Below are positions 23,433 through 56,747 of a DNA stretch of 64,000 nucleotides, in pieces; position 1 is the first letter of the stretch, and each line of letters starts with the position of its first letter. The notes under the pieces were generated by a model that searched no databases, was not told where the DNA came from, and saw nothing but the letters and a program-made list of their open reading frames with translations. Both the position numbers and the translations under genes were made by a program. This DNA is from Patescibacteria group bacterium (GTDB lineage Bacteria; Patescibacteriota; Patescibacteriia; UBA10025; JAHIVO01), in contig JBMOKY010000001.1 of the NCBI GenBank assembly GCA_049325535.1, forward strand, positions 877,942-941,941. The letters run 5' to 3'.

Positions 23433-26400
23433 TCAAAATTCCGGCGTTATGATATAAGTTATATTCGACGTATAATTCCCCGCCTCGGTCTGAGAGCTGA
23501 TATTACTCATATATCTGACTGAATAGGTGGTGGTGCTCGATGCGCCGGCTGATGTGGCAAATGTATCCGGAAAATTTATGAGATCATAAGCAAACCCCGC
23601 ATCGGCATACGGCGCGCTGACTGAGCCGCTCCCGCCGCTAGCGGTGGCGCGGATACCATACTGCTCGGTACCGGTCTGCGATGCGGTGTTGGTGCCACCA
23701 ATATAATCAATACTATCCCCCGCGCCTGAAGTCAGAGTAGTGCCGTCGATATCGATACTATACCCCCCGCCGCCACTGGTAGCAGCCGCCAGAGTATGCG
23801 CCTGCACTTCTGTGTCTGATCCCGTACCGTCGCCCGTGGCATACCGGTCCTGCGTGGCGCTCAATGAGCCAAATCCGATGGTAGTATCGGAGATACTGAA
23901 ACTCATACTATTGATCAACCAGCAGTCGTTATTGGTAGCGTCAAAATTCGTGCCATTGGACGCGTCGATATCGGGCGCCTGGCCGCAGGCGTCTGAATCG
24001 CGCACGTTGGTATTGGACACTGACCGGGTACCGGCCACATGGATATCCCACTGGGTGCCGGTGGAAGAACTGCGCAAGAAAACCCGGGTGCCCGTCGCCT
24101 GGCCATTGAAGGAAATATTCTGGAAGGTATAGGTCGATCCGGCATTGAAACGCAGCTTGGTATTGGCCGTCGTGGCAGTAAAATTATTATCCGTTTCAGC
24201 AGCGGCGCTGAATATTACCGAGGGACTGGTCTCTGGATTTGAGCCGGAGCTATTGGTGATGGTAAGATTATAAAATGCCGAAGCGCCGGTCATGGTGCCG
24301 GAAAATGTCTGCTGGTTGATGCCGTCGGCGGTAACCGTACCCGACCGCGCTTCAAAGATGTCATTATTGGTCCAGTTTCCCGCTAGATACACCGAATAAT
24401 TACTTAAATTTTTCGTATCCAGTGTACCGCCGGTAATGGTCAGGTTTCCATTGACATCCAGATTTGATTCCAGCTGAAAGGTGTCACCATTGGCACTGTC
24501 ATTTAATACGACGTGGAAAAAATCATCACACGCGGCACACTGTGCGCCGGATGAATCAATATAGATGGTACCGCCGGGTTTGGCCGCACCGGTAAAGGTG
24601 GCCGTCGCCAGCTGTGACGTGAATGTGTCAGCATTGGTCCAGTCCCCGCCGATAGTTATAGCATTGCTTTCTGTGGATTTGGTATCGAGTATACCATCGG
24701 TAATGGTGATGTCATTTTCCACGGTCAGCGGATCTTCGATCTCGACCGTCAAATCGTACGTGCCGCCGCCGTCATCGATCACCAGATCATACGGATTGCC
24801 GGTACCGGCGGTGATCAGATCGCTGGTCACATCGCTGACAGCGGTAGCCGGAATCGTGAATGCCAGCGTAGAGCCGACATTCGTGCCGTCGCTGTTATTC
24901 AGCTGGGCGCCGGACTGGAGGTCAAATTTTCCATCGGTGGCCATATAGGTCCCATCAGTCTCCACATCATCATCCACATCCAGCCGGCCACCGCCCGATC
25001 CCCCATCAGCCGCGATGGTGATGCCCCCGATCCCGATATCCAAATCATACCCATGGGTATTGAATACATCACCATCATTAATGGTCAAAGACTTAGCAGT
25101 CATGTCAGTGGCCAGGTCAGTCGTATCAGGCGACGTGCCAATATGCACGTCTCCGACGCTTGTTTGGGTGACGCGGTTATCGGCGTACGTCAGATCGCCG
25201 TCGAGAATCAGCAGACCGGACGTAGCGGGATTGAACGTAGCGCCGGATGCGATGGTAAAATCACCGGCCACATTCAGATTTGACGACGCGTGATGGGTAA
25301 ATGAGCCGCTGGACACCGTAAACGTACCATTGACATCCATGGCGTCAGCACTCGAAACTGATCCGACACCTACCTGAAAATTCGACAGAGTTTTTCCGCC
25401 TGACGTGATCACTTTACTGGCGCCATTCATCAGCAGCGTGTGCCCAGCGGTCGCCGTAAACGTGTCGCAATTGCTCAAGGTCGTATTGCCAGTCACGGTC
25501 CAGGTCGCAGTGCCAGTAGTCACGCTGTTTGTGCTGGCGCCGGCGGTGCAGGATAGATCGTTGCCCACCGTGATGACGGCATTGTTGCTGGCCGCATTCA
25601 GATGTACGTTATGTGACCCATCACCGACGACCAAATCATGGGTGATGCTGTTTGCCGTGGGGCTGGTGAAGGTATAGGCGGGTGTGGCGCCGCCGCTTGG
25701 TTGGACGTGCAGATTATAATAGTAACTATAATTCGACAGGCTCTGGATGTCGGTAGCGACCTCGCCGGTGTACCGGAACGTGGATGTATTTCCCACGATC
25801 CGACCATTATTGATCACCGGCCTTGATCCACCGGTGCCGCCCTGGGTGATCACCCACGTTTTTGATCCCGCATGCAGCGCGTGACCATAGCACGACTCCT
25901 CGGTACAGCCGCAAATCTCCAACGGGTCGTACACCGCATCGGTAGTGATGACGCCGGTCACCGTCATCTGTCCCGTGCCTGTCGCGGTGGTTATCCGGTC
26001 AGCGCACTGGGTGGTGGATGACAGATGGAAATTATTGATCGACCAGGCGGTGTCGCCACCAAAACTCCCGCTAGTCGAAGGTATGGTCAAAGTGCCGGCA
26101 GTCAGATTCAAAATCCCATCACCGGTAATATCACCACCAGTGACCGTCAGATTTTGCGCGCCGGTGACGGTCGTGCCGCTACCTACCACCATATCATTGG
26201 AAACGGTCATGGGATCATCCAGCGTAATCGTGCCACTGCCTGAAGTCTGGAAATTATACGGGGACGTGTCACTGCCATACACATTATCAACAAACAAGGT
26301 GCCGGTCCCGTTCATGATCAGGGTACTGCCCGTGTCTGGAATAAACTGACCACGGGTCAGCTCGACATCGCCGCCGACCGTCCAGGTGCCGGCGCCGGCG

Positions 26401-29400
26401 CCGATGGTGGTGATGCCACCAGCGCCGTTATTGCTGAAATCACCACCAATCGTCACGGATGGATCATAACCACTGGCGTCAGCGGTCAGCAAAAAATCGA
26501 AATCACTGTTTATCAAAGTCAGATTACCGGTAATATCCGGGGTTTGTGAACCCGCCGTACCGATGGTGACCTGGCGACTGGCGCCTCCGGGCATATAAAA
26601 TTCCACATCCCCGCCGTATGTCCGGTCGCTCATGATGGTATTGTTATTGGTACAATCGAACCGCAAGATAGAGCTAATCGTACCTGTCGTGGGAAATGCC
26701 GTCGCAGGCCGGTATGCAAGTCGTCCCGCGCCGGAAATAACCCCATTCAGGGTGAGGGACCCAGTCGAATTCAGAGTTACGGTCCGCCCGGACGGTATGC
26801 TCAGCGTATCGCTGGTATCAACAGTCATGGTATTTGACACGCTGAAATCGGTATTCTGAACCGTGACCGTACCGGTTCCCGAAGGATACACATCCAAATT
26901 ATATAATGTCTCATCATTCAGATCGAGCGTGACCGATGCCCCACCCACATACAAAGTACTGGTGCCAGCGCTCAGGGTCACATTGCTATTGACCGTCATA
27001 TTGGAATAAACTATCGTAGTGACGGCACTCTGCAGCGTATAGGTGGTGCTGCTGGATGGCTGGAGCTGGAGCGTACTATAAAAAGAATTATCCACGGTGA
27101 CGCTGGTACCAGTATACCGCACGATGGAGTTATTCACAGGCTGGCCAGCGAGGATGGCGTCCATGGGTGTGCCGCTGGACATGGTCAAAATAATCAGTTT
27201 GTCATTGGGGTCGATCACATGAGTCCAGGTTTCCAGATTGAAACAAGTATCAGTAGTCAGCGTGCCGGAAAAAGTAAATGAACCAGCGCCGGTAAATGAT
27301 GATGTTTTGCTGCCGCACGAGGCATGCGTAAACTCCATGCTGCTAAACGACCAATCTTCCGCGCCACCGATAGTTGACGTGTAGGGAAACGTCATGGTGC
27401 CGCCGGTCATAGCTACCGTACCGTTACCGGTTAGACTGCTCAGAATAGTGAAATCCCCCGTACCATCCATCGTGCCATTGACCGTCACTGTGCTAGTCAT
27501 GCTGGTCGCGTCCACGTGGAGTGCGGCGGGATCTGACAGTACATTGGCAATAGTAATACCGCCGCTGAAATACGTCGTCCCGGCATCGAACCACATCTCC
27601 GACCCATCTTCCAAATATAACTGGGAGCCGCCACCAGTGTTGATCTTACCACCCGGATCAAACGAATCACCGGACCATAGGAGTAAGTTTCGACCACTGT
27701 CGAGCTGCAGATATCCAGCATCATAGTAGATCACGCCCGCGTCGCCATTATCAGCAGCGAGCATGTCCGCATTGGTCATTGGTCCGGCGTTTTCGTGCCG
27801 GACGATGATCCAATTGTCATACAGCCGGGCGCCAGTGATGGCGGATGACGTATCGGCCGCCAGAGTCACGAAATTTGCCTGGATTGACTCCCCGCTGTCG
27901 ATATACAGGATGATGGGATCGCCGGCGCTCGATGGGGGCAATACACTGATACTGAATGTGCCGTCGCCGGAAGTACAGGTCGCCGTGTCAGCCGACTCAC
28001 CATTGGTCGCGCCATGGATCGTGATGTTATTTGCGCTGCAATTGTACAGCGTCGAACCTTGATCAGAATATATCGCGCCGCTAACCGTAACTCCAGTGAA
28101 TATCCAGCAGTTATTACTGCCGCCGTCATTGCTGGTGCCGTCATAGGCGCGGATCGAATCCCCGCCGCAGGCGCTGGAATTACTGGGATTGGCGTAGCGG
28201 ACTGACTGAGTGCCGGTCACTACCAGATTCCATGACCCTACCCCGCTGGATCGGGCCAGATCGATGCGCGTACCTACCGCCTGCCCGTTGATATTGATAT
28301 TCACCCACGTATGGGTGGTGCCACCGACGAACCCGAGATTCGTATTTGCCGTGGTAGCGGTGAAGGTGCCATCCACGTCAGTGGAGGAACTGAAGACGAC
28401 GCCACCGACCGAGGCATTGGTCACGATCAGATCATAAAATGAATTGACTCCCGTCAGGGTACCCGTGATGGTCTGGGTGCTGGTGCCATTCAGCGTGATA
28501 GTCGCCGTACCGGAGCTAAAATTACCGTCAACCGACATATTCCCGCCGATACTCATGGAGCTCCATCCCTGCAGCGAATCGCCAGACGGCAATGTGAAGC
28601 TGCCGGTAATGGTCACGGTCGGAGGTGTCATTTCTACCAAATTCGAACCTGATGGAGAATTCGATGAAAAATTCCCGCTGACGGTCAGTGTACCCGCGCC
28701 AGCTTCAAAAAGCCTGCTTCCTCCGCTGTTATTGTATAATTCCAAATCCCCGCCGTACGCCCGGGCGACAAACAATGTATCGTCAACCGGTCCGGCGGTC
28801 GCGTCGAGCCGGACGTCCACATCCAGCGTACCACCGGCGTCCAGATTTGCCGTGTCAGTGAATACTAATAACCCAGCGCCATTGATCGTACCATCACTCA
28901 GCCACAGCGGCGAGCCGGTAGTGACCGACCGACCGGAATTGATAGTCAGCGTGCTCCCGGACGAGACAATCAAGTAATTAGAGGTGGTAAAATCAGTATT
29001 GGCTACGGTAACGGTGTTATTCGTCCCATTCACATACACTCGATAAAACGTCTTACCGCCTGCATCTATGGTCTTCCCGTCACCAGCCATCTGCAGAGCT
29101 GTGCCTGACGTATGGGAAAAACTAACTAATGTGTCGATATATAAATCGCCATACAAACTGCCACCATTGAGGGTGTAGGATGGGGTGCCGCTGGCCGGAT
29201 CCAGGCGGAGATTGTACAGTGTGCCGCCATATACGTCGGTCGCGGCCGTCCCCTCGAAACTAAATGTCGATGCCCCCCAAGAACTTATATTCAGTCCGTA
29301 GGTAGGCGCACCGGTGCCGGTGCCGCTGCCGGTAAAATGCCAGATCTTATCGCCCGTCGCCAGTCGCGCATAGTAGGCACACTCCATGCCACAGGAGCAA

Positions 29401-32400
29401 CTCTCCGAGGTGAGCTGATGGCTGACGGTCATTTCCCCGCTCCCCTGGGCGGTCATGGTGTAGCTGGCCGTACAGGCCCCACTGTAGCCGGCAGTCAAAT
29501 TATAAAATGTCCAGTTGGTATTCCCGGCGATGGTCGAGGTGTTCTGCACTTCCACGGTGCCGCCGGTCATATTGACGGTGCCATTACCGCTGAAGTCCCC
29601 CAGCACGGTGATATTGCTGGTACCCTGGATAGTGCCGCCATTGGCGGTGATATTCCCCGTCACATTCAGCGCGTTGCTCACCACCAGCGTACCCAGCGTC
29701 ATGGTCACATTGCTATTCACTGTCGTGGCGGAATTCAGCGTCCACTGCCCGCCGGAGCCATTGAACACCACCGTATTCACATCAGCATCCGTGGCGCTCG
29801 TGCTGTCGATGGTTTCGGTAGTGGTTGATTCAAAAGTAATCGTCTCGCTCGCGGCGTTATAATCCCCATTATTATCCCAGGACCCAGATACGGTCACCGA
29901 CGCGGCCGGGGTCAATTGCCCGTTGATTTCCACATCATGCGCTTCGAGCAAATCACTCCCGGTCAAATCCAGATGCGATCCCGACAGGATGCGTAGTTTA
30001 TCATCAGCATACACATCGTCATCGTCGACGGTAAACACCGGGCCATCCAGAGATGTCCAGCAGGAAAACATGATGTCCTCATCATTCACATTTTGATAGG
30101 TCGTCGCCGTACAGTGGCTATCCGTCAGCGTGGGATTGTCATCACTGCCGATAGTCAGTACGTGCGTATCGAGCACCATGCCGGTGATGTGGCCACTGCC
30201 GTCGTAAATGGTGATAGCCGTCGATTCGTTATCATTACCCACGTTATCAATCCATACATAGACCTCATCCCCGGATGACGGAGCGGTCACACCGGAAATC
30301 GTCCAGGTGCCGGAGGAAATCGTGGTCGTGGATCCTTGGAGGGTGCTATTGTACGCGTACCGTACGGTCGCGCCTTCATTGCCATTGGCCGTGCCAGATA
30401 TGGCAAACCCAAAATTCCAGTTCGTATTGGTGCCACAGTTGGTATTGGTGCCGTCATCGGCACCGATCTCACTGCCGCTTGATGCGTCAGACCGGGCCAC
30501 ATCGACATATGAGACAGCCGTCTGGGTTCCGGAAACATTGAGCAGCCACGTGCCGGAGGTCAGATTTGAATTCCGAAATACGATGAAGTTACCTACTGAA
30601 CCCGCCCAATTGATATTATTGACGGTGTACGTAGATCCGGAATTGTACTCTACTTCCACGCTGCCAGTGGTGATAGTGTAGGTGCCGGAGATGGTAGCCG
30701 CGGCTGCGAAATCGATGCTGGGGTTAAAAGACGTGGAGCACCCGGACCATGAACCGGCGGTGTTGGTCAGGATCAGATTATAAAAATTATTAGTCGAGGT
30801 AGTCATCGATCCGGACAATGTCTGCTTGGCAGTTCCGGACAGAGTGACTGTACCGAGATTATCGGTAAACGTACCATTATTGGTGTAGTCTCCTTTCAGG
30901 TCAAACGAACCGGTATTACTCGCTTCCCATACGGTACCCGTACCGATAGTCAATGCTTGAGTAATGGTAAATGTCGGATCGTAGGTATTCACCTGCACGG
31001 TCAGGGTCCCGGCACCCGCCCGGGTAGTGGTCACCCCTCCAGTAATGCTGAACGTGCGGCCGGCGGTATCCCCGAGGGTGATCGTCCGTGATGAAGCGGA
31101 ATTATTATACAGTTCCAAGATTTTACCCGACCCGACAAGCGTCCGGGTGCTGGCGGTGCCATTGACAGTGATGTCATTTGACGTGGCGTCCAGCCGAATA
31201 TTAGCACTGATCGAAGGACTGGCCGGCAGTGTCGATGCCTGGACGATGAGAGTCCCGTCGCCGCTGATGATAGAGGACGAATTATTAGCCAGTGAACCCG
31301 TGCTGGCCACCGTCGCGCTGTATGAACTGGCGATATCCAGCTGGGTAAGAGACGCGATGCTTAAGGTGTTGGTTACGGTCATATTTCCCGCTTGCATGTG
31401 TGCCACAGTTCCAAATCCGGTCAGGGAAAAATTATAAAACGAAGTACCATTTGGATACAGCGCGTCATCATCATCACCATCCATAGCCAGCGTATTGCCG
31501 GACGTGGCAGTATATGTCCCACCGGTGAAATCGACGATGTTGCTCACGGTCCACGTGCCTGTGCCGGAAGTGATAGACTCGCTTCCGCCACCGGTGCCAG
31601 TGAAGTCCAAATCACCGCCGATAGTCACCGTCGGATTATTGGTATTTGCCGCTACCGCCATCGTCTGGGTGCCGGCTGCCAGTACATGAAAATGCGCGCC
31701 TGAACCGGACAGAGTATAGGTGCCCGAGGCCAGGGTGGCCGTGCGCGTCCCGGCACTACTGCTGGAATAAAACTCTACCGGCCCAGCATACGTCCGGGCG
31801 TCGATGGTCGTCGATGCCACATCGCCACTCGTCGCGTCATAGCGAGTGATGGCACTCAAGGTACCGGTCGTCCCCGGACCACCGGCGCCATTCGGATAGA
31901 CTAGCCGTCCCGCACCGGATACCGTGCCATTGAGGGTGGTGTTGGCCGCATTGGTATGGGTCACGGTCCGGTCCGATCCGATGGAAAGCACATCATCAGT
32001 ATCGATATTCAGAGTATTGGTCACGGTCACATCATTCGAGCCGCCGACCGTCACCGTACCGACGGTACTGTCACCGATGGTCAGATTATAAAATGTGGTG
32101 TCGGTGGTGCCATTGATAGCGCCATTGCCCACCAGTTGCACCGTACTGGTACCACCGGTATACGTGCCGCCGTTATTGGTGAAATCACCGGTCACCGCCA
32201 TGGTATTGTCATTGCCATTGAATGTCTTGCCGGAACTGATGATAAATGACCCGGCTAAGTTTAAGGTCTGCGTGGTACTGTCATTAAATTTACTGTCCTC
32301 ATCGACCTGAAAATTATAAAACGAATGTGCCGCTGCCTGCACGTCATAATACGTCCGGGACGAGGAATCACCGCCGCCATTCAGCCCTAAATGCAGCGTG

Positions 32401-35400
32401 CCGCCACTGGGCGCCCCCCCAAGTCCATTACCCGTCACCAGCGTGGCAGTATTGTACACCAGGAAACCCCGAGCATAGAGATGGCCTCCAGTCATATAAA
32501 AATTGACGGTGCCAGGAGTGGTGTTTGCCCATTCCACGATGGCATTGTTCCCGGCATACACGCTGGCACCGGCCAGATAGGTGGTCGACCCGGCGCGCAG
32601 ACGGATATGCGAACTGTTTGCCGTATCGCCGGTGATGGTACCTGCGCTCCAATACCCCGTGCCGCCGGTGGCCTGGTACTCACCAGTAAATATGACACTG
32701 GCGCCAGTATCAAATATCAGCGTTCCGCCGCTGTGAGCGATGGTGCTGCCAGTTCCATTGCCCCAGACATTGACCGCTGTACTGATGGTCGTCGTGCCAT
32801 TGCTGACCAGGAGGTCATCGGCGATATTGATAGTGCCACCAGACAATGTCGTGGTACCGGTAGACGATAAATCTTCAACCAATCCATCGCCAATCGCAAA
32901 TGTGCCTCCGCTTACATTGAGCGTGCCTGTGACAGTGACACCGCTGTCACCATTGGCATTTGTCGAGTTTTGGACATTGAGCGTGGCGCCGGTATCGATG
33001 GTCGTGCTGCCGGCGATGGTATTGGTCGCGGTATCCAGGTACATGGTGGCACTATCATCCACATGCAGCGAACCGGTCCCCTGAGTGGTCACGGTGCCGT
33101 TCGGATCATACGTATCACCGGTCCAGAGGTGCAGTTCGAAATTTGAATCAACCGTCAGATTTGATGAGGCGACGTCGAATTTCACGTCGCTGTCTCCGCC
33201 CTCCCGGTCGCCTGACTCCAGATTCGCATTGGTGATGGATGCCCCATAATCGTTGCGCACGATGACGCGATTTTGGTACAGGTGGGCATTGGTCTGCGTG
33301 GTGCCATCGCTCTTGAATACCGTAGTCGCTTCTTCCGTCTCCTCATCCACAAATATGGTGATGACATCCCCGGCTGAGGCAGTCACGTTTGCTATGGTAT
33401 AGTCCCCGCTCGAGGTTTCTGCCGTGCACGCCCCGCCACCGCACGCGTTCGCATTGCCATTGACCCACAGTACGATGGTCTTTGCCGATGCGGTTATCTT
33501 GGTCGATCCTTCGTCAGAATACAGCGATCCGCCGATGCTGATGCCGCTGGCGGCACCGCAGCCGCTGGCATTGGTACACTCGGCCAGGATCACGTCGAAA
33601 TACTGCGGCTTGTGGTCAGTGCTGGCATTGAACGATGCGGTGATGGTATGCGTGTGGGTGCTACGCGCCACACCAGTGCCAGCAGCCGTACCGCCTGAAT
33701 TGGCGGATGGGGTTCCGGTATTGCCGCTGGTCTGATTGGCCATGCTATGGGTATCGGCTGATTGGGGGGTAGCGGAATAGCTAGATGACCCGCGGATGAA
33801 TTGGCCATTGTACGTCTGGCTGGCGCCAGACACCGTGGTCCAGCCAGTCGGCGGCGCGGCGTCCCACATGGCGATCATATTTTGCGGCACGCTATTGTCC
33901 GCCGTGGCCTGATAGATGAGCGACTGGATGTAGGAAGGTAAAGAGGTATATGAAGTGGAATTGGTAGCGGTAGGCGCGGTATGGGTATGAGTAAAAGATG
34001 CGGACCGGTACGTTGCCAAACCGATATCCTCATCAGCCGAGCCTGATGCGGCGGTCAGTGATCCCCAGGTCAGCGAATGGGTGTGCGTGTTGGCCGTCCC
34101 GCCAGTCGCGTGGGAATTATTTATTTTTACCATGCGGTCGTCCGCGCTACTGAATTGGGACCAGCTGCCGCTGGGTGTGGTATCGAAAAACACAAACGCA
34201 TTATTCGGAATGGTAGTGGGATCTGTGGAATTGCTTTTCCACAGGTAAAACGTGTAATTGAGCGGATCATTATTAGCGCTGCCCACCGTCAGACTATTGA
34301 TCCCATGGGTATGACTGGTCAACGACATGATGGAACAAAAATCAGAGCATCCATGGTCAGATACTTCCGTGGACGGCGCGCTGATAGTCTGGCCGGAGAC
34401 GGTGTGCGTGTGCGATGTCGCACCGCCCGAGGGCGGGGTAGCATCGGTACTGGCCGCACCACGAGGATAGTAGCCATTGTAGGTCGTATCAGTCGTCCAC
34501 CCGGTGGGTGCCGAGCTGGAATTCCCCAGTACAAACATATAGGCCGGATCGATGACCAGCTGCCAGGCGCGCGCCTCCTGCCACTCACCCACCTGCGCCG
34601 GGCCAAAAGCAAATAGTGCCGGACTTTTTTCTGGCGATTTGAATGCATAGGTCAGCTCGGTATCGCTTCCCGCTGCCAGATCCACCTCCCACACGATGGA
34701 ATGCACGATGGCCGACCCGGTGTCATACGGCTCCACGCGCCCGCCCTGACCCGGCTCCACCGTAAATTCACCCGGGATGAGCTCACGTACTATGCCGGCG
34801 AAATCATCGCGCGCATGTACCCGCAGCGTCATCGGCTGAGGCACATTCGGGAAAACGCGGGTGGGACCCTGCCGGGTAATATAATACGCCGGGTCCTCAG
34901 CTACGGTAAACGAATCAGTCAGCCGCCGCTCGTCCCCCTGTACCGCGGCAACGAGCTCCACGCTATATCGCCCGATAACGGTCGGCGTGTACACGGCCAC
35001 ATAGTCCGGTCCCTCGTAGACGTCTTTCACCGAGCAATAGTCGGTGACCGCAATCGACCCATCGGCTGACGACAGGATGGAGACGGTGCCCTGAGGATCA
35101 GTGATCCTGAGCAGCATGTCCGCGGTACAGACGATATGGCCGGTGTCATCCACCGCGCCGAGAGAAAACGTGACGTCCTGCCCGAGCCGGTACTGCGCCT
35201 GGTCGGTATTCATGGCCAGTCCGCCCCAGACAAACTCATAGACGACCTCCTTGGTCCGGCCATCCTGCTCCACTGCCACGGTCACCGAGTATTTGCCCGG
35301 CCGGGTAAATGAACCAGTGCCCACCGTCACCGCTGCGGTCGTGTCACCGCCAGATTCTGATTCGGTGACAGCGATTCGCGCGTCCTGGGTGGTGCCATTG

Positions 35401-36701
35401 GGGTCGGTGATGGCCACGTTTTTGATTTCGCGGGTAGTCGGCTCGACGCCTAAGAATTCGAAATTGGACCCTTCTTTTATAGTGACGTCAATCACCGGCT
35501 GCTCATCCAGGGCGAAATTACCGTCACCCTCCACATCGACAAATGCGGTACTCTCCTCGATCTGCTGGATGACCGGGTCCGGCTCCTGCACCGTCGCCCG
35601 GACGGTCACCCCGTCTATCCATGCCGCCGTGGCTGCGTCCGCCGAGCCAGAAGCAAATGTTGCCCGGAATCGAACTTGGGTGATCTGGGCGATGCTGGTG
35701 ATATCAGGAAGCGGATAGATGAAAAAATCTCCATGAATAGCGTTGCTAAAATTTTCAGTGAGCGCCATCGATTCCAGTGCCATCCAGGTCTGGCCGGCAT
35801 CAGCCGAATACTCCAGTACCAGCACATCATCACTGGCAGAGTCCCCCTGGGCGGCTAATGAAATCGCGAGGGCCACCTCGGAAATAGTAGATGCTGGATC
35901 CACGCTGTCCGGCAGCCGGAACCCGCCAACCGTGAGGATTGGGTCAGAGGTATCCAGCGGCGCATCGGTGACCTCACCGATAGAAGCGGGCTGATCCTCG
36001 ATCACGGTAGTATGCTCTATCTCCACCGGCTGTTGGTCGGCCGGCTGCAATGCGTGGAAATGCGCAGCATTGTCATCGGTGAAATCGCCGATACCCGCCG
36101 TGGGCAGCGCATCGATCTCCATCACTGCCGCAGTCGCATCCCAGCCCGCAGCCGTACTCGGTGCCAGTGTGTATGTCTCTACCGGCGCCTGTCCAGCCCG
36201 AGCCAAATAAATATAGGCAAAGAAGCTGACCTGCACTACGGCAAACGTAAATGCGACGAGGAGGACGGAAAAAATGTATAGGGAAAATTTACGGCTCAAA
36301 AAATACAGCTGGAACCAGCGCCAGGAAAATCCCGGTTTGAGCACGTAGCGATTGTCATCTGATTCCGGCACGACTGGTGCGACAGGCACTACCACGATCC
36401 GCTTGTGCGGCGGCAGCGACTGATAGAAGGAGCGGATCGCTTCACGGTCATATCGTCGGTCCTGCCGGATACCGATGCGGACAGCACGAAGCCGACCAGA
36501 ACGGTCCCAGTTCCGGAGGGTATTTGGGTGCACGCCAAGGATTTCGCTGACCTGCTCTATGGTGAGCAAATGCGGCAGCGAATCAAAGTCTATGGAGCGT
36601 TCCTGTACGGTTGGCGTCTGTTTTTGTTTTTTCTTAAACCAAAACAGCTCCACGAATTTACTTTTTACTTTCGCTTCAATTAGCGAAAAATAATCATTCA
36701 C
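23433..36701 (-). CDS. Giant (4422 aa) surface protein: N-terminal excisionase/MerR-type HTH + TM segment, ~4000-aa Thr/Gly/Ser-rich beta-helix-like repeat region, C-terminal WxL-like domain
   Basis: 13.3-kb uninterrupted ORF with a GTG start at 36701. Residues ~45-95 (LLTIEQVSEILGVHPNTLRNWDRSGRLRAVRIGIRQDRRYDREAIRSF) match the HTH_17/excisionase DNA-binding domain. Residues ~130-165 form a TM helix. Internal repeated modules such as GTRIDLARSSGVGSWNLVVTGTQSVRYANPSNSSACGG recur several times. The C-terminal 160 aa are homologous to the 346-aa neighbour. Confidence 0.6.
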   Translation of the reverse strand: MNDYFSLIEAKVKSKFVELFWFKKKQKQTPTVQERSIDFDSLPHLLTIEQVSEILGVHPNTLRNWDRSGRLRAVRIGIRQDRRYDREAIRSFYQSLPPHKRIVVVPVAPVVPESDDNRYVLKPGFSWRWFQLYFLSRKFSLYIFSVLLVAFTFAVVQVSFFAYIYLARAGQAPVETYTLAPSTAAGWDATAAVMEIDALPTAGIGDFTDDNAAHFHALQPADQQPVEIEHTTVIEDQPASIGEVTDAPLDTSDPILTVGGFRLPDSVDPASTISEVALAISLAAQGDSASDDVLVLEYSADAGQTWMALESMALTENFSNAIHGDFFIYPLPDITSIAQITQVRFRATFASGSADAATAAWIDGVTVRATVQEPDPVIQQIEESTAFVDVEGDGNFALDEQPVIDVTIKEGSNFEFLGVEPTTREIKNVAITDPNGTTQDARIAVTESESGGDTTAAVTVGTGSFTRPGKYSVTVAVEQDGRTKEVVYEFVWGGLAMNTDQAQYRLGQDVTFSLGAVDDTGHIVCTADMLLRITDPQGTVSILSSADGSIAVTDYCSVKDVYEGPDYVAVYTPTVIGRYSVELVAAVQGDERRLTDSFTVAEDPAYYITRQGPTRVFPNVPQPMTLRVHARDDFAGIVRELIPGEFTVEPGQGGRVEPYDTGSAIVHSIVWEVDLAAGSDTELTYAFKSPEKSPALFAFGPAQVGEWQEARAWQLVIDPAYMFVLGNSSSAPTGWTTDTTYNGYYPRGAASTDATPPSGGATSHTHTVSGQTISAPSTEVSDHGCSDFCSIMSLTSHTHGINSLTVGSANNDPLNYTFYLWKSNSTDPTTIPNNAFVFFDTTPSGSWSQFSSADDRMVKINNSHATGGTANTHTHSLTWGSLTAASGSADEDIGLATYRSASFTHTHTAPTATNSTSYTSLPSYIQSLIYQATADNSVPQNMIAMWDAAPPTGWTTVSGASQTYNGQFIRGSSSYSATPQSADTHSMANQTSGNTGTPSANSGGTAAGTGVARSTHTHTITASFNASTDHKPQYFDVILAECTNASGCGAASGISIGGSLYSDEGSTKITASAKTIVLWVNGNANACGGGACTAETSSGDYTIANVTASAGDVITIFVDEETEEATTVFKSDGTTQTNAHLYQNRVIVRNDYGASITNANLESGDREGGDSDVKFDVASSNLTVDSNFELHLWTGDTYDPNGTVTTQGTGSLHVDDSATMYLDTATNTIAGSTTIDTGATLNVQNSTNANGDSGVTVTGTLNVSGGTFAIGDGLVEDLSSTGTTTLSGGTINIADDLLVSNGTTTISTAVNVWGNGTGSTIAHSGGTLIFDTGASVIFTGEYQATGGTGYWSAGTITGDTANSSHIRLRAGSTTYLAGASVYAGNNAIVEWANTTPGTVNFYMTGGHLYARGFLVYNTATLVTGNGLGGAPSGGTLHLGLNGGGDSSSRTYYDVQAAAHSFYNFQVDEDSKFNDSTTQTLNLAGSFIISSGKTFNGNDNTMAVTGDFTNNGGTYTGGTSTVQLVGNGAINGTTDTTFYNLTIGDSTVGTVTVGGSNDVTVTNTLNIDTDDVLSIGSDRTVTHTNAANTTLNGTVSGAGRLVYPNGAGGPGTTGTLSAITRYDATSGDVASTTIDARTYAGPVEFYSSSSAGTRTATLASGTYTLSGSGAHFHVLAAGTQTMAVAANTNNPTVTIGGDLDFTGTGGGSESITSGTGTWTVSNIVDFTGGTYTATSGNTLAMDGDDDDALYPNGTSFYNFSLTGFGTVAHMQAGNMTVTNTLSIASLTQLDIASSYSATVASTGSLANNSSSIISGDGTLIVQASTLPASPSISANIRLDATSNDITVNGTASTRTLVGSGKILELYNNSASSRTITLGDTAGRTFSITGGVTTTRAGAGTLTVQVNTYDPTFTITQALTIGTGTVWEASNTGSFDLKGDYTNNGTFTDNLGTVTLSGTAKQTLSGSMTTSTNNFYNLILTNTAGSWSGCSTSFNPSIDFAAAATISGTYTITTGSVEVEYNSGSTYTVNNINWAGSVGNFIVFRNSNLTSGTWLLNVSGTQTAVSYVDVARSDASSGSEIGADDGTNTNCGTNTNWNFGFAISGTANGNEGATVRYAYNSTLQGSTTTISSGTWTISGVTAPSSGDEVYVWIDNVGNDNESTAITIYDGSGHITGMVLDTHVLTIGSDDNPTLTDSHCTATTYQNVNDEDIMFSCWTSLDGPVFTVDDDDVYADDKLRILSGSHLDLTGSDLLEAHDVEINGQLTPAASVTVSGSWDNNGDYNAASETITFESTTTETIDSTSATDADVNTVVFNGSGGQWTLNSATTVNSNVTMTLGTLVVSNALNVTGNITANGGTIQGTSNITVLGDFSGNGTVNMTGGTVEVQNTSTIAGNTNWTFYNLTAGYSGACTASYTMTAQGSGEMTVSHQLTSESCSCGMECAYYARLATGDKIWHFTGSGTGTGAPTYGLNISSWGASTFSFEGTAATDVYGGTLYNLRLDPASGTPSYTLNGGSLYGDLYIDTLVSFSHTSGTALQMAGDGKTIDAGGKTFYRVYVNGTNNTVTVANTDFTTSNYLIVSSGSTLTINSGRSVTTGSPLWLSDGTINGAGLLVFTDTANLDAGGTLDVDVRLDATAGPVDDTLFVARAYGGDLELYNNSGGSRLFEAGAGTLTVSGNFSSNSPSGSNLVEMTPPTVTITGSFTLPSGDSLQGWSSMSIGGNMSVDGNFSSGTATITLNGTSTQTITGTLTGVNSFYDLIVTNASVGGVVFSSSTDVDGTFTATTANTNLGFVGGTTHTWVNININGQAVGTRIDLARSSGVGSWNLVVTGTQSVRYANPSNSSACGGDSIRAYDGTSNDGGSNNCWIFTGVTVSGAIYSDQGSTLYNCSANNITIHGATNGESADTATCTSGDGTFSISVLPPSSAGDPIILYIDSGESIQANFVTLAADTSSAITGARLYDNWIIVRHENAGPMTNADMLAADNGDAGVIYYDAGYLQLDSGRNLLLWSGDSFDPGGKINTGGGSQLYLEDGSEMWFDAGTTYFSGGITIANVLSDPAALHVDATSMTSTVTVNGTMDGTGDFTILSSLTGNGTVAMTGGTMTFPYTSTIGGAEDWSFSSMEFTHASCGSKTSSFTGAGSFTFSGTLTTDTCFNLETWTHVIDPNDKLIILTMSSGTPMDAILAGQPVNNSIVRYTGTSVTVDNSFYSTLQLQPSSSTTYTLQSAVTTIVYSNMTVNSNVTLSAGTSTLYVGGASVTLDLNDETLYNLDVYPSGTGTVTVQNTDFSVSNTMTVDTSDTLSIPSGRTVTLNSTGSLTLNGVISGAGRLAYRPATAFPTTGTISSILRFDCTNNNTIMSDRTYGGDVEFYMPGGASRQVTIGTAGSQTPDITGNLTLINSDFDFLLTADASGYDPSVTIGGDFSNNGAGGITTIGAGAGTWTVGGDVELTRGQFIPDTGSTLIMNGTGTLFVDNVYGSDTSPYNFQTSGSGTITLDDPMTVSNDMVVGSGTTVTGAQNLTVTGGDITGDGILNLTAGTLTIPSTSGSFGGDTAWSINNFHLSSTTQCADRITTATGTGQMTVTGVITTDAVYDPLEICGCTEESCYGHALHAGSKTWVITQGGTGGSRPVINNGRIVGNTSTFRYTGEVATDIQSLSNYSYYYNLHVQPSGGATPAYTFTSPTANSITHDLVVGDGSHNVHLNAASNNAVITVGNDLSCTAGASTNSVTTGTATWTVTGNTTLSNCDTFTATAGHTLLMNGASKVITSGGKTLSNFQVGVGSVSSADAMDVNGTFTVSSGSFTHHASSNLNVAGDFTIASGATFNPATSGLLILDGDLTYADNRVTQTSVGDVHIGTSPDTTDLATDMTAKSLTINDGDVFNTHGYDLDIGIGGITIAADGGSGGGRLDVDDDVETDGTYMATDGKFDLQSGAQLNNSDGTNVGSTLAFTIPATAVSDVTSDLITAGTGNPYDLVIDDGGGTYDLTVEIEDPLTVENDITITDGILDTKSTESNAITIGGDWTNADTFTSQLATATFTGAAKPGGTIYIDSSGAQCAACDDFFHVVLNDSANGDTFQLESNLDVNGNLTITGGTLDTKNLSNYSVYLAGNWTNNDIFEARSGTVTADGINQQTFSGTMTGASAFYNLTITNSSGSNPETSPSVIFSAAAETDNNFTATTANTKLRFNAGSTYTFQNISFNGQATGTRVFLRSSSTGTQWDIHVAGTRSVSNTNVRDSDACGQAPDIDASNGTNFDATNNDCWLINSMSFSISDTTIGFGSLSATQDRYATGDGTGSDTEVQAHTLAAATSGGGGYSIDIDGTTLTSGAGDSIDYIGGTNTASQTGTEQYGIRATASGGSGSVSAPYADAGFAYDLINFPDTFATSAGASSTTTYSVRYMSNISSQTEAGNYTSNITYIITPEF

Positions 36702-54235: not shown

Positions 54236-55021
54236 TTACCATTGAGATGGTATTTGTTGTTCATGATAATCAATAAATTCTTTCGCCAATCGCTCATAGG
54301 CTTTGGCGCCGGGCGACCGCTTGTCATAGTGAAAAATGCTTTTGCCAAAACTGGGGGCCTCAGCCAATTTCACGTTTCGCGGAATCACTGTCCGGAAAAT
54401 TTTATTGGGGAAATATTTATACAGCTCGTTGAAAATATCCTGGGACAATCGGTTCCGGTCATCGTACATCGTCATCACCGCTCCCAAAACTTGTAAATTT
54501 GGCTGCAACCGCTCCTGTATCAGCTGCACGGTCTGCAGCAGCTGCCCGAGCCCTTCCAGTGCATAGTACTCAGTCTGGACAGGGATAAGCACTTCGTCGG
54601 CGGCTACTAAACCATTGATGGTGAGCAGGCATAGTGACGGCGGATTATCGATGATGATGTAGTCATAATCATTGCGTACTTCAAGCGTAGCAGTATGCAG
54701 CCGATGCTCACGGCGCTCCAGACCGACCAATTCTACCCGCGCCCCCGCCAGATCAGCCGTAGCCGGCGCCAGGCTCAAACCATCGACGGTGGTCGGCTGA
54801 ATCACTTCCTTGATTGACACCTCAGTGACCAGGGGATGGTAGATACCCTGTTCTACCTGACGATAGTCGACGCCCAATCCTGAAGAAGCGTTGCCCTGAG
54901 GATCGAGGTCTACCAGCAATACATATTTACCCTGCCGTGCTAAATACACCGCAAGGTTAACCGCCGTGGTGGTCTTGCCGACGCCTCCTTTTTGATTCAC
55001 GATTGAGATAACTTTTGGCAT
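54236..55021 (-). CDS. parA: Chromosome partitioning ATPase ParA (Soj)
   Basis: Deviant Walker A motif KGGVGKTT in IVNQKGGVGKTTTAVNLA, typical ParA/Soj, at 261 aa. Confidence 0.95.
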   Translation of the reverse strand: MPKVISIVNQKGGVGKTTTAVNLAVYLARQGKYVLLVDLDPQGNASSGLGVDYRQVEQGIYHPLVTEVSIKEVIQPTTVDGLSLAPATADLAGARVELVGLERREHRLHTATLEVRNDYDYIIIDNPPSLCLLTINGLVAADEVLIPVQTEYYALEGLGQLLQTVQLIQERLQPNLQVLGAVMTMYDDRNRLSQDIFNELYKYFPNKIFRTVIPRNVKLAEAPSFGKSIFHYDKRSPGAKAYERLAKEFIDYHEQQIPSQW

Positions 55022-55052: not shown

Positions 55053-55082
55053 TTGACAAAAACAGTGGATTTCTAGTAGAAT
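55053..55082 (+). promoter_or_regulatory. Sigma70-like promoter TTGACA-N18-TAGAAT upstream of the tRNA-Leu fragment / GIY-YIG / tRNA-Leu unit
   Basis: TTGACA at 55053-55058 and TAGAAT at 55077-55082, about 25 nt upstream of the tRNA-Leu-like 5' fragment. Confidence 0.45.
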
Positions 55083-55107
55083 CATTCAGTATACACTCGT
55101 CACTCAG

Positions 55108-55168
55108 GCCGCCGTGGTGGAACTGGTAGACACGCACGACCTGCCTGCCGGCAGGCAGGCTCAAAATC
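55108..55168 (+). pseudogene. Duplicated 5' half of tRNA-Leu(CAA) interrupted by a 20-nt perfect palindrome; no 3' half
   Basis: 55108-55140 is identical over 33 nt to tRNA-Leu 55428-55460 (GCCGCCGTGGTGGAACTGGTAGACACGCACGAC). Next comes CTGCCTGCCGGCAGGCAGGC (palindrome 55140-55159), then the anticodon-loop sequence TCAAAATC. After that the sequence diverges into the GIY-YIG gene. Confidence 0.7.
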
Positions 55169-55188
55169 CCATGGAGCCAATCGCCAAC

Positions 55189-55422
55189 ATGTACGTCACC
55201 TACGCAATTAAGAGTCAAACAAAAAAATACCTCTACGTCGGACTTACCAATAATTTGACGAGGCGGTTAAAAGAACATAATCAGGGTCAGAATAAAACCA
55301 CAAGACCCTACAGGCCATTCAAGCTCGTTCTCCAGGAAACATATCAATCGCGAATTGAAGCAAGAAAACGAGAAAAGCAATTAAAAAGTGGGTACGGAAG
55401 AGAATATTTGAAAAAATTGTGA
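55189..55422 (+). CDS. Small GIY-YIG nuclease (YhbQ/UPF0213-like)
   Basis: The ORF is called from 55114, inside the tRNA fragment. Plausible starts are ATG 55171 (MEPIAN...) or ATG 55189 (MYVTYAIKSQTKKYLYVGLTNNLTRRLKEHN...). It carries the GIY (YVTY) and YIG (LYVGLT) motifs plus the conserved Arg and Glu, in a 77-83 aa protein like E. coli YhbQ. Confidence 0.8.
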   Translation: MYVTYAIKSQTKKYLYVGLTNNLTRRLKEHNQGQNKTTRPYRPFKLVLQETYQSRIEARKREKQLKSGYGREYLKKL

Positions 55423-55427
55423 CACAT

Positions 55428-55512
55428 GCCGCCGTGGTGGAACTGGTAGACACGCACGACTCAAAATCGTGTGAGGCGACTCATGTCGGTTCGAGTCCGA
55501 CCGGCGGCACCA
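55428..55512 (+). tRNA. tRNA-Leu (anticodon CAA), long variable arm, CCA encoded
   Basis: The sequence reads GCCGCCG-TG-GTGG-AACTGGTAGA-CACG-CACGA-CTCAAAA-TCGTG-[TGAGGCGACTCAT]-GTCGG-TTCGAGT-CCGAC-CGGCGGC-A-CCA, a type II tRNA. Confidence 0.85.
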
Positions 55513-55550
55513 CAAAAACCCCATACTCTTTCACGGGGTTATTTTTAGTC

Positions 55551-55856: not shown

Positions 55857-56747
55857 ATGCATACCCGTGCCTCACGAACGCCTATCGGCATCCTCATATA
55901 CACCCATGATCGAGTGGAGGATGCCCGGATTAATATGGATATCATCCGGAGTCTCTGGCACCATGCTGGGTTATTTTCGAATGTACGGATCGTCCACGCA
56001 TACAATGGGAAACGCAGCTGGTATCCCGAAAAATACCGGGAGGATATCGTGGTGAGAATAAAAAATACTGACCACTACCGTGGAGCGGCTGAACTCATCG
56101 ACGCAGGATGGTACGCGGTACGGCGGCACTATCCCGGCATCCGATACCTGGTGATTCTCGCGGCGGACACGTGGTGCATCAAACCCGCCTTTATCCGATC
56201 GATAATTGACCGAATGCAGCGCCAGCAAACGGTTTGGGCTACCTGCCCCTGGGGTCTGCCCGGCCGCTTCCGAGAAACCAATGTAGGCATGGCCACTGAT
56301 TTTCACATCGTGGACGTGGCCTGGGCAAACCGTTATGGATTTCTCCCGCTCCGGTACCGACAATTCTGGAATCAGTACCACGAAATAGTTTCATACCTCA
56401 GGCCCGGTGCCAATGTGTCAGTTGAAAAGCTGGCGCTGGCCCGATTTCACGATGCCTGCTTTCGTGAACACGGTGATGCCATTCACCGCAAAGAACAGGC
56501 TCGTCGTCGCACGCAGCTGATTACCGAACGCATGCCCGTACACTCCGGAAAAGACCGCCGAGGGTACTGGATTCGTTCCTGGTACTGGCCGCGCATCGGA
56601 CTGGTGACGCACCACCAACCAGGACCAAAACGAGTAATTCTCCGCCGCACAAAAAATATCTCTGGCTACGCGGTTGAAAAGCTCTTGCATGCCAAACGCC
56701 TCGACTACTACCAGACGTTTGCTACGACGAGGCAGTCATATGATTAG
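55857..56747 (+). CDS. Hypothetical Trp/Arg-rich cytoplasmic protein, no recognisable family
   Basis: 296-aa ORF with host-like GC and no TM helix or signal peptide. The N-terminal segment IGILIYTHDRVEDARINMDII...YLVILAADTW is vaguely nucleotide-binding/GT-A-like. It lies between the tRNA cluster and lgt. Confidence 0.5.
   Translation: MHTRASRTPIGILIYTHDRVEDARINMDIIRSLWHHAGLFSNVRIVHAYNGKRSWYPEKYREDIVVRIKNTDHYRGAAELIDAGWYAVRRHYPGIRYLVILAADTWCIKPAFIRSIIDRMQRQQTVWATCPWGLPGRFRETNVGMATDFHIVDVAWANRYGFLPLRYRQFWNQYHEIVSYLRPGANVSVEKLALARFHDACFREHGDAIHRKEQARRRTQLITERMPVHSGKDRRGYWIRSWYWPRIGLVTHHQPGPKRVILRRTKNISGYAVEKLLHAKRLDYYQTFATTRQSYD

Follow-up and report, generated by a model that had tools for sequence, protein, structure and literature searches.

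This analysis concerns a tRNA-Leu(CAA) locus in a window of 64,000 nucleotides, the term window denoting the whole stretch of DNA that was analyzed, from a 1.15-Mb contig (JBMOKY010000001.1, positions 877,942 to 941,941) of a Patescibacteria metagenome-assembled genome (MAG). At this locus a gene for a small GIY-YIG nuclease is nested between an intact tRNA-Leu gene and a partial second copy of it, and the partial copy is interrupted by a perfect palindrome of 20 nt (Table 1). The duplicated segment comprises the first 41 nt of the intact gene. Its first part is free of mismatches: 55108-55140 matches tRNA positions 1-33 at 100% (blastn-short), as had been stated in an earlier interpretation that was made from the letters and the open reading frames (ORFs) of the window (the sequence-only reading). 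The insertion point of the palindrome is between tRNA positions 32 and 33, which is the 5' stem/loop junction of the anticodon arm; it has an ambiguity of one base, because position 33 and the first base of the palindrome are both C. The anticodon loop then resumes, and the similarity to tRNA-Leu ends after CTCAAAATC at position 55168. The stem/loop placement of the palindrome, the resumption of the loop with subsequent divergence, and the promoter had all been described correctly before. When nine nucleotides of leader are included, the repeat has a length of 42 nt at 93% identity (55099-55140 versus 55419-55460). The palindrome is single-copy in the window even when three mismatches are allowed (chance expectation 0.01 per window), and neither a second copy of it nor a second copy of the ORF was found in the 64 kb.

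The nuclease ORF starts with the ATG at 55189, which is common to all 30 aligned homologs and yields a protein of 77 amino acids. The sequence-only reading had given a range of 77 to 83 amino acids; the alignment retains the lower value and excludes the upper one. The longer readings of 83 and 102 amino acids pass through the palindrome and the tRNA remnant. The GenBank protein annotated here (P0001, 55114-55422, 102 amino acids) starts at a GTG within the tRNA remnant and includes the translated palindrome (…DLPAGRQ…). Exact-sequence look-ups of the 77-, 83-, and 102-residue readings gave no match. The GGAG in the spacer is a putative Shine-Dalgarno sequence of the ORF. On the plus strand, the promoter scan found no further promoter-like site between the resident promoter and the tRNA. 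The intact tRNA had been placed just past the ORF stop, which holds true, with the distance corrected to five bases (CACAT); as expected from that reading, ARAGORN and Rfam recognize one tRNA-Leu(CAA) at the locus. The nine nucleotides in front of it, GTGACACAT, agree with the resident leader GTCACTCAG at six of nine positions, and the difference would be as expected for a segment copied from a related donor. Upon RNA or DNA folding of the leader region the palindrome forms a hairpin, and the whole leader folds no better than shuffled sequences (z = -0.16).

Table 1. Features of the tRNA-Leu(CAA) locus, with positions in the window.
Feature	Position	Strand	Basis
Resident tRNA-Leu promoter, TTGACA-18-TAGAAT	55053..55082	+	promoter scan, 11/12 matches
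tRNA-Leu(CAA) remnant, tRNA positions 1-32	55108..55139	+	100% identical to intact copy
Perfect 20-nt palindrome CCTGCCTGCCGGCAGGCAGG, halves CCTGCCTGCC and GGCAGGCAGG	55140..55159	.	repeat search
Insertion of 320 bp, one possible convention: palindrome to position 32 of the second tRNA copy	55140..55459	+	
Remnant continued, tRNA positions 33-41, CTCAAAATC (anticodon loop and 2 nt)	55160..55168	+	sequence reading
Spacer with GGAG at 55174-55177, 11 nt 5' of the ATG	55169..55188	+	sequence reading
Gene for 77-residue single-domain GIY-YIG nuclease, Slx1/UPF0213 type	55189..55422	+	PF01541; homolog alignment
Leader-like 9 nt GTGACACAT before the intact tRNA, overlapping the ORF stop codon	55419..55427	+	repeat search
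Intact tRNA-Leu(CAA)	55428..55512	+	ARAGORN; Rfam, 57.7 bits
Terminator-like hairpin and T-run 3' of the tRNA	55517..55547	+	also in the empty allele

The same locus could be inspected in other assemblies. The neighboring ParA protein (54236-55021, minus strand) is 100% identical on five further contigs from other sequencing runs, and in four of them (L081, L082, L083, and L085) the interval from parA to the tRNA can be read. All four have the same promoter, a leader ending in GTCACTCAG, and an intact tRNA-Leu(CAA) 87 nt from the parA start, and this region of the four contigs contains neither a GIY-YIG ORF (tblastn) nor the palindrome. The promoter of the window is identical to that in front of the intact tRNA of these empty alleles, and the remnant occupies the original place of the gene, also 87 nt from the parA start. 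When 320 bp are removed from the window, it aligns with L081 in a single ungapped block with 3077 of 3080 positions identical, and the intact tRNA of the window is identical to that of the empty allele over 85 nt. The ends of the insertion can be slid anywhere within the tRNA repeat. The 77-residue ORF is the only protein gene in the insert, and its GC content is 38%, compared to 53% for the window and 51-56% for the neighboring genes. More distant relatives, with ParA identities of 85% (Kerfeldbacteria GCA_016214565.1) and 83%, are empty as well, and they carry parA, tRNA-Leu(CAA), and two tRNA-Met genes. Therefore, the empty state is ancestral and the window represents a recent insertion. 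The earlier proposal of an insertion or duplication scar in a tRNA gene is thus supported by four same-species assemblies with empty sites and flanks that are 99.9% identical, and by the empty sites at both levels of ParA divergence. A lack of empty sites among related genomes, which the sequence-only reading had named as refuting evidence, is therefore not observed. As an aside, the short-read assemblies L082-L085, L088, and L092 of the species and its relatives end 100-270 nt from the parA start; the tRNA cluster at this locus tends to break assemblies.

The window is not an isolated case. A profile from a nine-sequence alignment, applied to one genome per species, retrieved 265 relatives, and the locus counts given in the following refer to the best 80 of these 265 plus the window, i.e., to 81 loci. 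The proteins closest to the window nuclease are at most 70% identical and come from Bacteroidota, Ignavibacteriota, and Patescibacteria. A co-oriented tRNA-Leu gene is present within 200 nt of the ORF at 76 loci, just downstream in 60 (median gap 16.5 nt), just upstream in 15 (median gap 43 nt), and flanked by two tandem ORFs in one. The anticodons at these 76 loci are TAA and CAA (30 each), GAG (7), CAG (6), and TAG (3). The palindrome is found within 300 bp of the ORF at 78 of the 81 loci when up to five edits are allowed; 67 loci have it with at most two edits and 37 have the exact 20-mer. It always lies within a partial second copy of the local tRNA, the ORF is located between this copy and the intact gene, and the orientation of the ORF is always that of the tRNA. 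The remnant fits the local tRNA, often at 100% and including the isoacceptor-specific anticodon stem, and the palindrome is mostly present on one side of the ORF. Altogether, about 80 genomes from several phyla have the layout of the window, which also occurs on other tRNA species. The carriers include isolates, namely Ekhidna lutea DSM 19307, Flagellimonas hadalis, and Muricauda sp. TY007. Relatives of the nuclease in cultured phages are weak (38-50% identity), and none was found in plasmid records. Taking the empty alleles and the family together, the window case is almost certainly a mobile insertion of this nuclease-palindrome family, and it appears to be one case of a very large family that targets tRNA genes.

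The histories of individual loci differ. Within the genus Ohtaekwangia the elements reside on different isoacceptors (L017, L027, L063, and L078), and in the Muricauda/Flagellimonas and Cytophagales clades they have been retained for a long time at a tRNA-Gly/tRNA-Leu(TAA) site. Tandem palindrome-ORF units that are 90-100% identical are present in L034, L042, L057, L070, and L078. In L069 (3236-4100) the ORF and an intact tRNA-Leu(CAA) are followed by four tandem units of 192 bp, each consisting of a tRNA without its first 5 nt, with the palindrome at position 15, and a terminator. A hybrid remnant in L051 joins a break at position 15 to one at position 39. Eight Muricauda/Flagellimonas loci (L016, L025, L038, L043, L045, L058, L059, and L064) contain a degenerate 20-nt derivative of the palindrome, TCATGCCTACGGCAGACAAG, which is situated exactly at the boundary between -1 and +1 of tRNA-Leu(TAA), about 20-60 nt before the palindrome and before the intact tRNA. 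Among close relatives it is found in the remnant, in the intact copy, in both, or in neither. In the same group, a species-specific single nucleotide polymorphism of the leader is common to both leader copies within a genome, which indicates gene conversion between the copies (concerted evolution). Tandem units, hybrid remnants, and concerted leaders are signs of continuing local recombination. Decay is also seen: one ORF is degraded (L227), some palindrome-bearing pieces have no ORF, and remnants have accumulated.

The GIY-YIG domain makes up the whole 77-residue protein, which has no separate DNA-binding module. It matches PF01541 over profile positions 1-74 of 78 with 62.5 bits (cut-off 22.6, E = 4.8e-17), and in 31 sequences the residues Y5, Y16, R26, and E62 are invariant and H30 is nearly so. 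An AlphaFold2 model with a confidence score (pLDDT) of 94 predicts a three-stranded sheet with flanking helices (strands 2-9, 15-20, and 44-52; helices 23-32, 55-66, and 68-75). A PDB profile search returned the UPF0213 proteins 1ywl (4.9e-9) and 1zg2 (1.3e-7), followed by SLX1 (about 1e-4) and I-TevI (0.013). Foldseek with the model ranked the structures in the same way (1zg2 and SLX1 with E-values of 7e-4 to 9e-3, UvrC 0.39, I-TevI 0.75), and superposition gave a TM score of 0.74 on the SLX1 nuclease domain (1.9 Å over 77 alignment columns) versus 0.57 on I-TevI. Sequence and predicted fold thus assign the nuclease to the Slx1/UPF0213 (YhbQ-like) branch, not to the I-TevI-like one. The sequence-only reading had named both relationships; the YhbQ-like assignment stands, and the kinship to classic homing endonucleases of the I-TevI type does not. 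The profile libraries of NCBIfam, PADLOC, and PHROGs returned no specific family for the protein. Among cluster representatives at 50% identity the profile has 4567 matches at E<=1e-10 and 18401 at E<=1e-3. The translated palindrome (LPAGRQ or PACRQAG) is found in mis-called N- or C-terminal extensions of 22 of the 148 best representatives, often preceded by the translated 5' part of tRNA-Leu (VAELVD), which independently confirms the linkage of palindrome and ORF. ORF pairs with amino acid identities of 75-97% have synonymous divergences (dS) of 0.3-2.4 and a median ratio of nonsynonymous to synonymous divergence (dN/dS) of 0.075, and all 86 ORFs of this set are intact. The ORFs are therefore under strong purifying selection. 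The palindrome is nearly invariant across phyla, in contrast to the saturated synonymous sites of the ORF, and therefore both protein and palindrome are under selection, which would be best explained by a protein that reads the palindrome.

The positions at which the tRNA genes are broken are not arbitrary. Junction coordinates were normalized to an anticodon start at position 35. The most frequent junction is at position 15 in the D-loop (n = 44, GGAA^TTGGTAGAC), followed by position 23 at the 3' edge of the D-loop (n = 13, GGTAGA^C), position 68/69 in the T-loop (n = 9), position 39 (n = 3), and position 32 (n = 2, including the window); a few additional palindrome junctions lie in the leader. 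Each of the main positions thus falls within, or borders on, the D-, anticodon-, or T-loop of the cloverleaf. At loci with junction 15, the remnant gives way to the ORF cassette most often at 23-24, i.e., at the next hot spot, and the two breaks in the window, between 32 and 33 and at 39-41, flank the anticodon loop. Two palindromes 9-10 nt apart are present in a single remnant in L222 (12, 22) and L227 (15, 24). At the tRNA-Leu loci the base 5' of the palindrome is almost always A; when both strands are counted at 162 distinct sites of the palindrome in metagenome and viral contigs, its 5' neighbor is A 115 times, G 96 times, C 78 times, and T 35 times. The outer start of the homology between remnant and intact gene is independent of the junction position. 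Of 50 cases, 20 have it at tRNA position 0 or +1, and 10 more have it at most 6 nt upstream of the tRNA 5' end. This pattern of outer edges points to acquisition by recombination inside the tRNA sequence, so that the leader of the rebuilt gene would stem from the donor.

Two other origins of the repeats were considered and rejected. A target-site duplication at a staggered cut does not agree with a repeat that is anchored at the tRNA 5' end and has a length of about 15 to 41 nt. A composite transposon of the type palindrome-ORF-palindrome was dismissed on the basis of L067, in which the second palindrome is again flanked by a tRNA 5' piece; the other loci of this kind, L049, L052, L054, and L055, were not read in the same way.

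The palindrome is also found outside of the ORF-linked loci. With the exact 20-mer as query, 35 stretches were retrieved from viral contigs, and metagenome contigs yielded at least 120. With more distant relatives of the nuclease, the layout of remnant, palindrome, and ORF was found on genes for tRNA-Asn (L172), tRNA-Ser (L178), tRNA-Lys (L201), and tRNA-Arg (L222), and in the viral contig L125 (490-860) the full layout including the second copy is present on a tRNA-like sequence that is not called by ARAGORN. The palindrome interrupts a tRNA-Val piece in L207, which has no family ORF within 400 bp (contig end), and the T-loop of a tRNA-Ala piece in L163, also without a family ORF within 400 bp. 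In the viral contigs L118 (2239-2330) and L095 (8600-8650) it resides in the variable loop of tRNA-Met genes. The palindrome is thus a dispersed repeat, with the tRNA-Leu elements as a specialized branch. Direct repeats of at least 7 nt between the 20-nt flanks are present at 12% of the 162 sites (control 1.2%), and inverted repeats of this size at 8% (control 1.5%); solitary palindromes seem often to be tied to short local duplications or to sit in the loop of a larger hairpin.

Within the palindrome, all positions are at least 91% conserved except for 8 (G to A) and 13 (C to T), which pair with one another, so that either change leaves a G-T pair on one strand. The two common variants at the 81 ORF-linked loci, CCTGCCTACCGGCAGGCAGG and CCTGCCTGCCGGTAGGCAGG, are mutual reverse complements. 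The former is found mainly at loci with the palindrome upstream of the ORF and the latter mainly at those with a downstream palindrome; these cases are phylogenetically not independent. The palindrome may have a polarity relative to the interior of the element. Its sequence was not found in the literature searched. Two arrays are worth recording in their own right: L127 (3915-4124) ends in at least 10 tandem units of 21 nt, CCATGCCTACCGGCAGGCAGG, and in L218 (5250-5538) a more distant GIY-YIG ORF is followed by 147-bp tandem repeats, each with the palindrome and with no tRNA nearby.

Close to the insertion, the window contains an ORF of 296 amino acids (55857-56747, plus strand) between the tRNA-Met pair and lgt, which has no Pfam match. 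In the relatives L087 and L089 the tRNA genes directly follow lgt without this ORF, so that the tRNA cluster of the window has received a second insertion that is specific to the lineage. Elsewhere, two very long ORFs on the minus strand, with 4422 (23433-36701) and 2730 (4553-12745) amino acids, take up much of the window.

We conclude that the locus is probably a minimal selfish element, composed of the gene for a 77-residue Slx1-like GIY-YIG nuclease and the 20-bp palindrome, in a tRNA-Leu(CAA) gene. The old 5' part of the tRNA was left behind the resident promoter, interrupted by the palindrome at the loop boundary, and the insertion supplied the ORF together with fresh tRNA positions 1-41, so that an intact tRNA was rebuilt 5 nt after the stop codon. 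The ORF, without a promoter of its own, would be read from the tRNA promoter, and the cut of RNase P at the tRNA 5' end would part the mRNA from the tRNA; co-transcription of the tRNA and the nuclease mRNA fits the architecture. The element would spread by break-induced copying: the tRNA gene would be broken where its strand, folded like the tRNA, is single-stranded, and a filled allele would act as the template for repair, the conserved tRNA sequence on either side of the break providing the homology. For this mode of spread, at loop positions, we regard the chances as evenly balanced; copying with tRNA homology would explain why the homology of remnant and intact gene often starts exactly at the tRNA 5' end. 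The nuclease is envisaged to recognize the palindrome as a hairpin and to cut beside it or in nearby single-stranded loops. By analogy with the Ssn proteins discussed below, such hairpin recognition and cutting is about as credible as its opposite. The near-invariance of the palindrome across phyla, at a divergence that saturates the synonymous sites of the ORF, strengthens the earlier suggestion that it could be the nuclease site.

Several points weigh against this interpretation. A nuclease that cuts empty tRNA genes would also cut the rebuilt copy of the host, which is identical, and no mechanism of immunity is visible. It is not obvious how a catalytic domain of 77 residues would recognize a long DNA target. 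The strength of the purifying selection and the long vertical persistence at one locus, in the Muricauda clade with a dS of about 1, are unusual for a purely selfish homing gene and could point to a function at the level of the host. Furthermore, 126 of the 141 metagenome copies of the palindrome among the matches listed have no family ORF and no tRNA nearby; 43 of these solitary copies are within 450 nt of a contig end, so that a neighbor has possibly been cut off, and 83 are not. The same is true for all but one of the copies in viral contigs. Therefore, the palindrome also exists independently of the ORF and of tRNA genes, which a homing model leaves unexplained. Lastly, a chimeric assembly of the filled allele through the conserved tRNA sequence is possible; a chimera would have required a donor with the same 32-nt tRNA 5' part, and thus a close relative that carries the element.

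The solitary copies can be accommodated by a more far-reaching and rather speculative view, namely, that the loci represent an undescribed class of ultra-small mobile elements, in which a single-domain Slx1-like nuclease and a 20-nt hairpin are the whole machinery and the targets are chosen by structure. The targets would be the single-stranded loops of a tRNA gene strand that is folded like its tRNA, and what is excised and placed into nicks would be the hairpin itself. A mobile hairpin would explain the precise insertions at loop boundaries without duplication, the double insertions 9-10 nt apart in L222 and L227, and the solitary copies. The nuclease gene would move with the hairpin by bringing a substitute for the lost piece of the tRNA, and the conserved tRNA sequence would be a portable homology for crossing between phyla.

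Part of the data can also be read in other ways. Precise empty and filled alleles are equally expected if a classic homing endonuclease, guided by the protein, cuts double-stranded tRNA-Leu DNA, and if the palindrome is a passenger instead of its site, which interrupts the remaining target or reduces the length of the direct repeat and so guards against recombinational loss. It is in line with this explanation that junction 15, at the conserved GGAA^TTGGTAGAC, is common to all five isoacceptors, that one ORF clade is found at position 22/23 of both CAA and CAG genes, and that tandem palindrome-ORF arrays are to be expected from repeated cutting of the regenerated tRNA. However, the regenerated tRNA would still be a target, the protein is a 77-residue catalytic domain alone with an Slx1-like and not an I-TevI-like fold, and at least five junction classes as well as other tRNA species are associated with the same palindrome. 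In addition, a sequence with no role but that of a spacer would not remain unchanged across phyla at a divergence that saturates synonymous sites, and we hold protein-guided homing to be unlikely. We give no more credit to a domesticated, immobile module that benefits the host, be it by restriction of single-stranded DNA (ssDNA) as proposed for SsnA, by defense, or by local genome maintenance, and for which the tRNA would simply be a convenient, strongly transcribed site. Such a module would account for the median dN/dS of 0.075, the 86 of 86 intact ORFs, and the long retention in Muricauda/Flagellimonas and Cytophagales; SsnA does modulate transformation (PMC11893778), and the palindrome is scattered without the ORF like the NTS repeats. 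It is at odds with the presence/absence polymorphism within a species, the foreign low-GC composition, and the different isoacceptors within Ohtaekwangia (L017, L027, L063, and L078). Piled-up remnants, the decayed ORF of L227, and palindrome pieces without ORF also disagree with it, and PADLOC defense models gave no match.

Two further explanations are much less probable. In this species the filled allele has been seen in a single MAG contig, all other assemblies being empty, as might be expected from a chance resemblance or an assembly artefact; this is highly improbable, because the same architecture is present in 78 of 81 independent genomes including isolate records, the chance expectation of the palindrome is very low (0.01 per window), and even a chimera needs a closely related carrier of the element with the same 32-nt tRNA 5' part as donor. 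Direct repeats of tRNA sequence flank the insert as they do at the ends of integrase-type islands, so that it might be an island remnant with the repeats as attachment sites, or else a tRNA intron that is spliced out. Yet the 320 bp encode only the 77-residue nuclease and no tyrosine or serine recombinase, and the repeated sequence comes from the 5' part of the tRNA instead of the 3' part. Rfam revealed no intron or ribozyme at E<=1, just the tRNA and sub-threshold chance matches, and a complete tRNA downstream makes splicing needless; neither island nor intron has any appreciable likelihood.

If the selfish-element interpretation is true, the known repertoire of mobile DNA gains a kind that is very small (about 300 bp) and very widespread, with carriers in Patescibacteria, Bacteroidota, and Ignavibacteriota. 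Minimal bacterial nucleases of the Slx1/UPF0213 type, which have hitherto been taken for repair proteins, would thereby acquire a biological role, and the locus would exemplify how a selfish element is harmless inside an essential gene by carrying the displaced piece. The nuclease and its hairpin would be a natural pair with a fixed 20-nt site, of a type sought as ssDNA-cutting tools. For annotation it is relevant that gene callers stretch such ORFs through the palindrome and the tRNA remnant, and that assemblies tend to break there.

The arrangement of GIY-YIG nuclease, palindrome, and tRNA duplication was not found described in the literature searched. The closest known system is Ssn, a family of single-domain GIY-YIG proteins (CDD cd10448) that bind a hairpin on ssDNA and cut beside it, such hairpin repeats being located on both sides of their genes (PMC11893778). 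Its authors noted the layout of repeat, gene, and repeat, which is similar to that of insertion sequences, and SsnA of Neisseria meningitidis, for which the repeats are the NTS, modulates transformation (PMC11893778). Both systems have a small single-domain GIY-YIG protein, and in both the gene is accompanied by a hairpin-forming inverted repeat of 20-50 nt that is also present at many other sites. However, the repeat described here is a perfect palindrome without loop, it lacks a conserved oriented flank, its flanks being tRNA sequence, and it is usually found on one side of the gene only. The SRM consensus of Ssn, HGTCWY..YYVSBRH..WNVSBRG..RNCYNB, has no match within 400 bp of the ORF at the 81 loci, and the palindrome with its flanks does not fit it either. 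Moreover, the nuclease gene described here lies within a tRNA gene, part of which is duplicated so that the tRNA is restored; the Ssn paper (PMC11893778) nowhere uses the word tRNA, and the comparison is made with its published description and consensus. A nuclease with a hairpin repeat is thus already known, whereas tRNA targeting with restoration of the gene is not described there.

The free-standing GIY-YIG homing genes (Seg and Mob of T4; I-TevI) also reside in or next to conserved genes, show a precise presence/absence polymorphism between close relatives, and make break repair from the filled allele a natural model of spread. They differ in that the nuclease of the window has no DNA-binding domain and a fold nearer to SLX1 than to I-TevI, that the target gene is restored without an apparent change that would make it immune, the palindrome interrupting the remnant, and that a conserved palindrome is part of the element. 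UPF0213/YhbQ proteins and SLX1 are the best PDB matches in sequence and structure, and have the same catalytic Tyr, Tyr, Arg, and Glu. A survey of the superfamily regarded the bacterial Slx1-like proteins as vertically inherited and placed the origin of the selfish members in the other lineage (PMC1564403). In contrast to UPF0213, the gene described here is located in an insertion that is polymorphic within a species and is tied to a palindrome and to tRNA genes; for this nuclease family, the present data disagree with the view of the survey.

Integrative elements that target tRNA genes resemble the present element in the insertion into a tRNA gene, the carriage of the displaced tRNA part with preservation of function, and the flanking direct repeats of tRNA sequence. 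Here, however, there is no integrase, the element has only about 300 bp, and the 5' part is restored (the 3' part in the T-loop class), with the leftover marked by the palindrome. The REP/RAYT and IS200/IS605 systems have in common with it a dispersed short palindromic repeat together with one small nuclease-type gene, and recognition of a hairpin on ssDNA would be the expected shared theme. The enzymes are different, an HUH transposase in the one case and a hydrolytic GIY-YIG nuclease, which by itself does not join strands, in the other.

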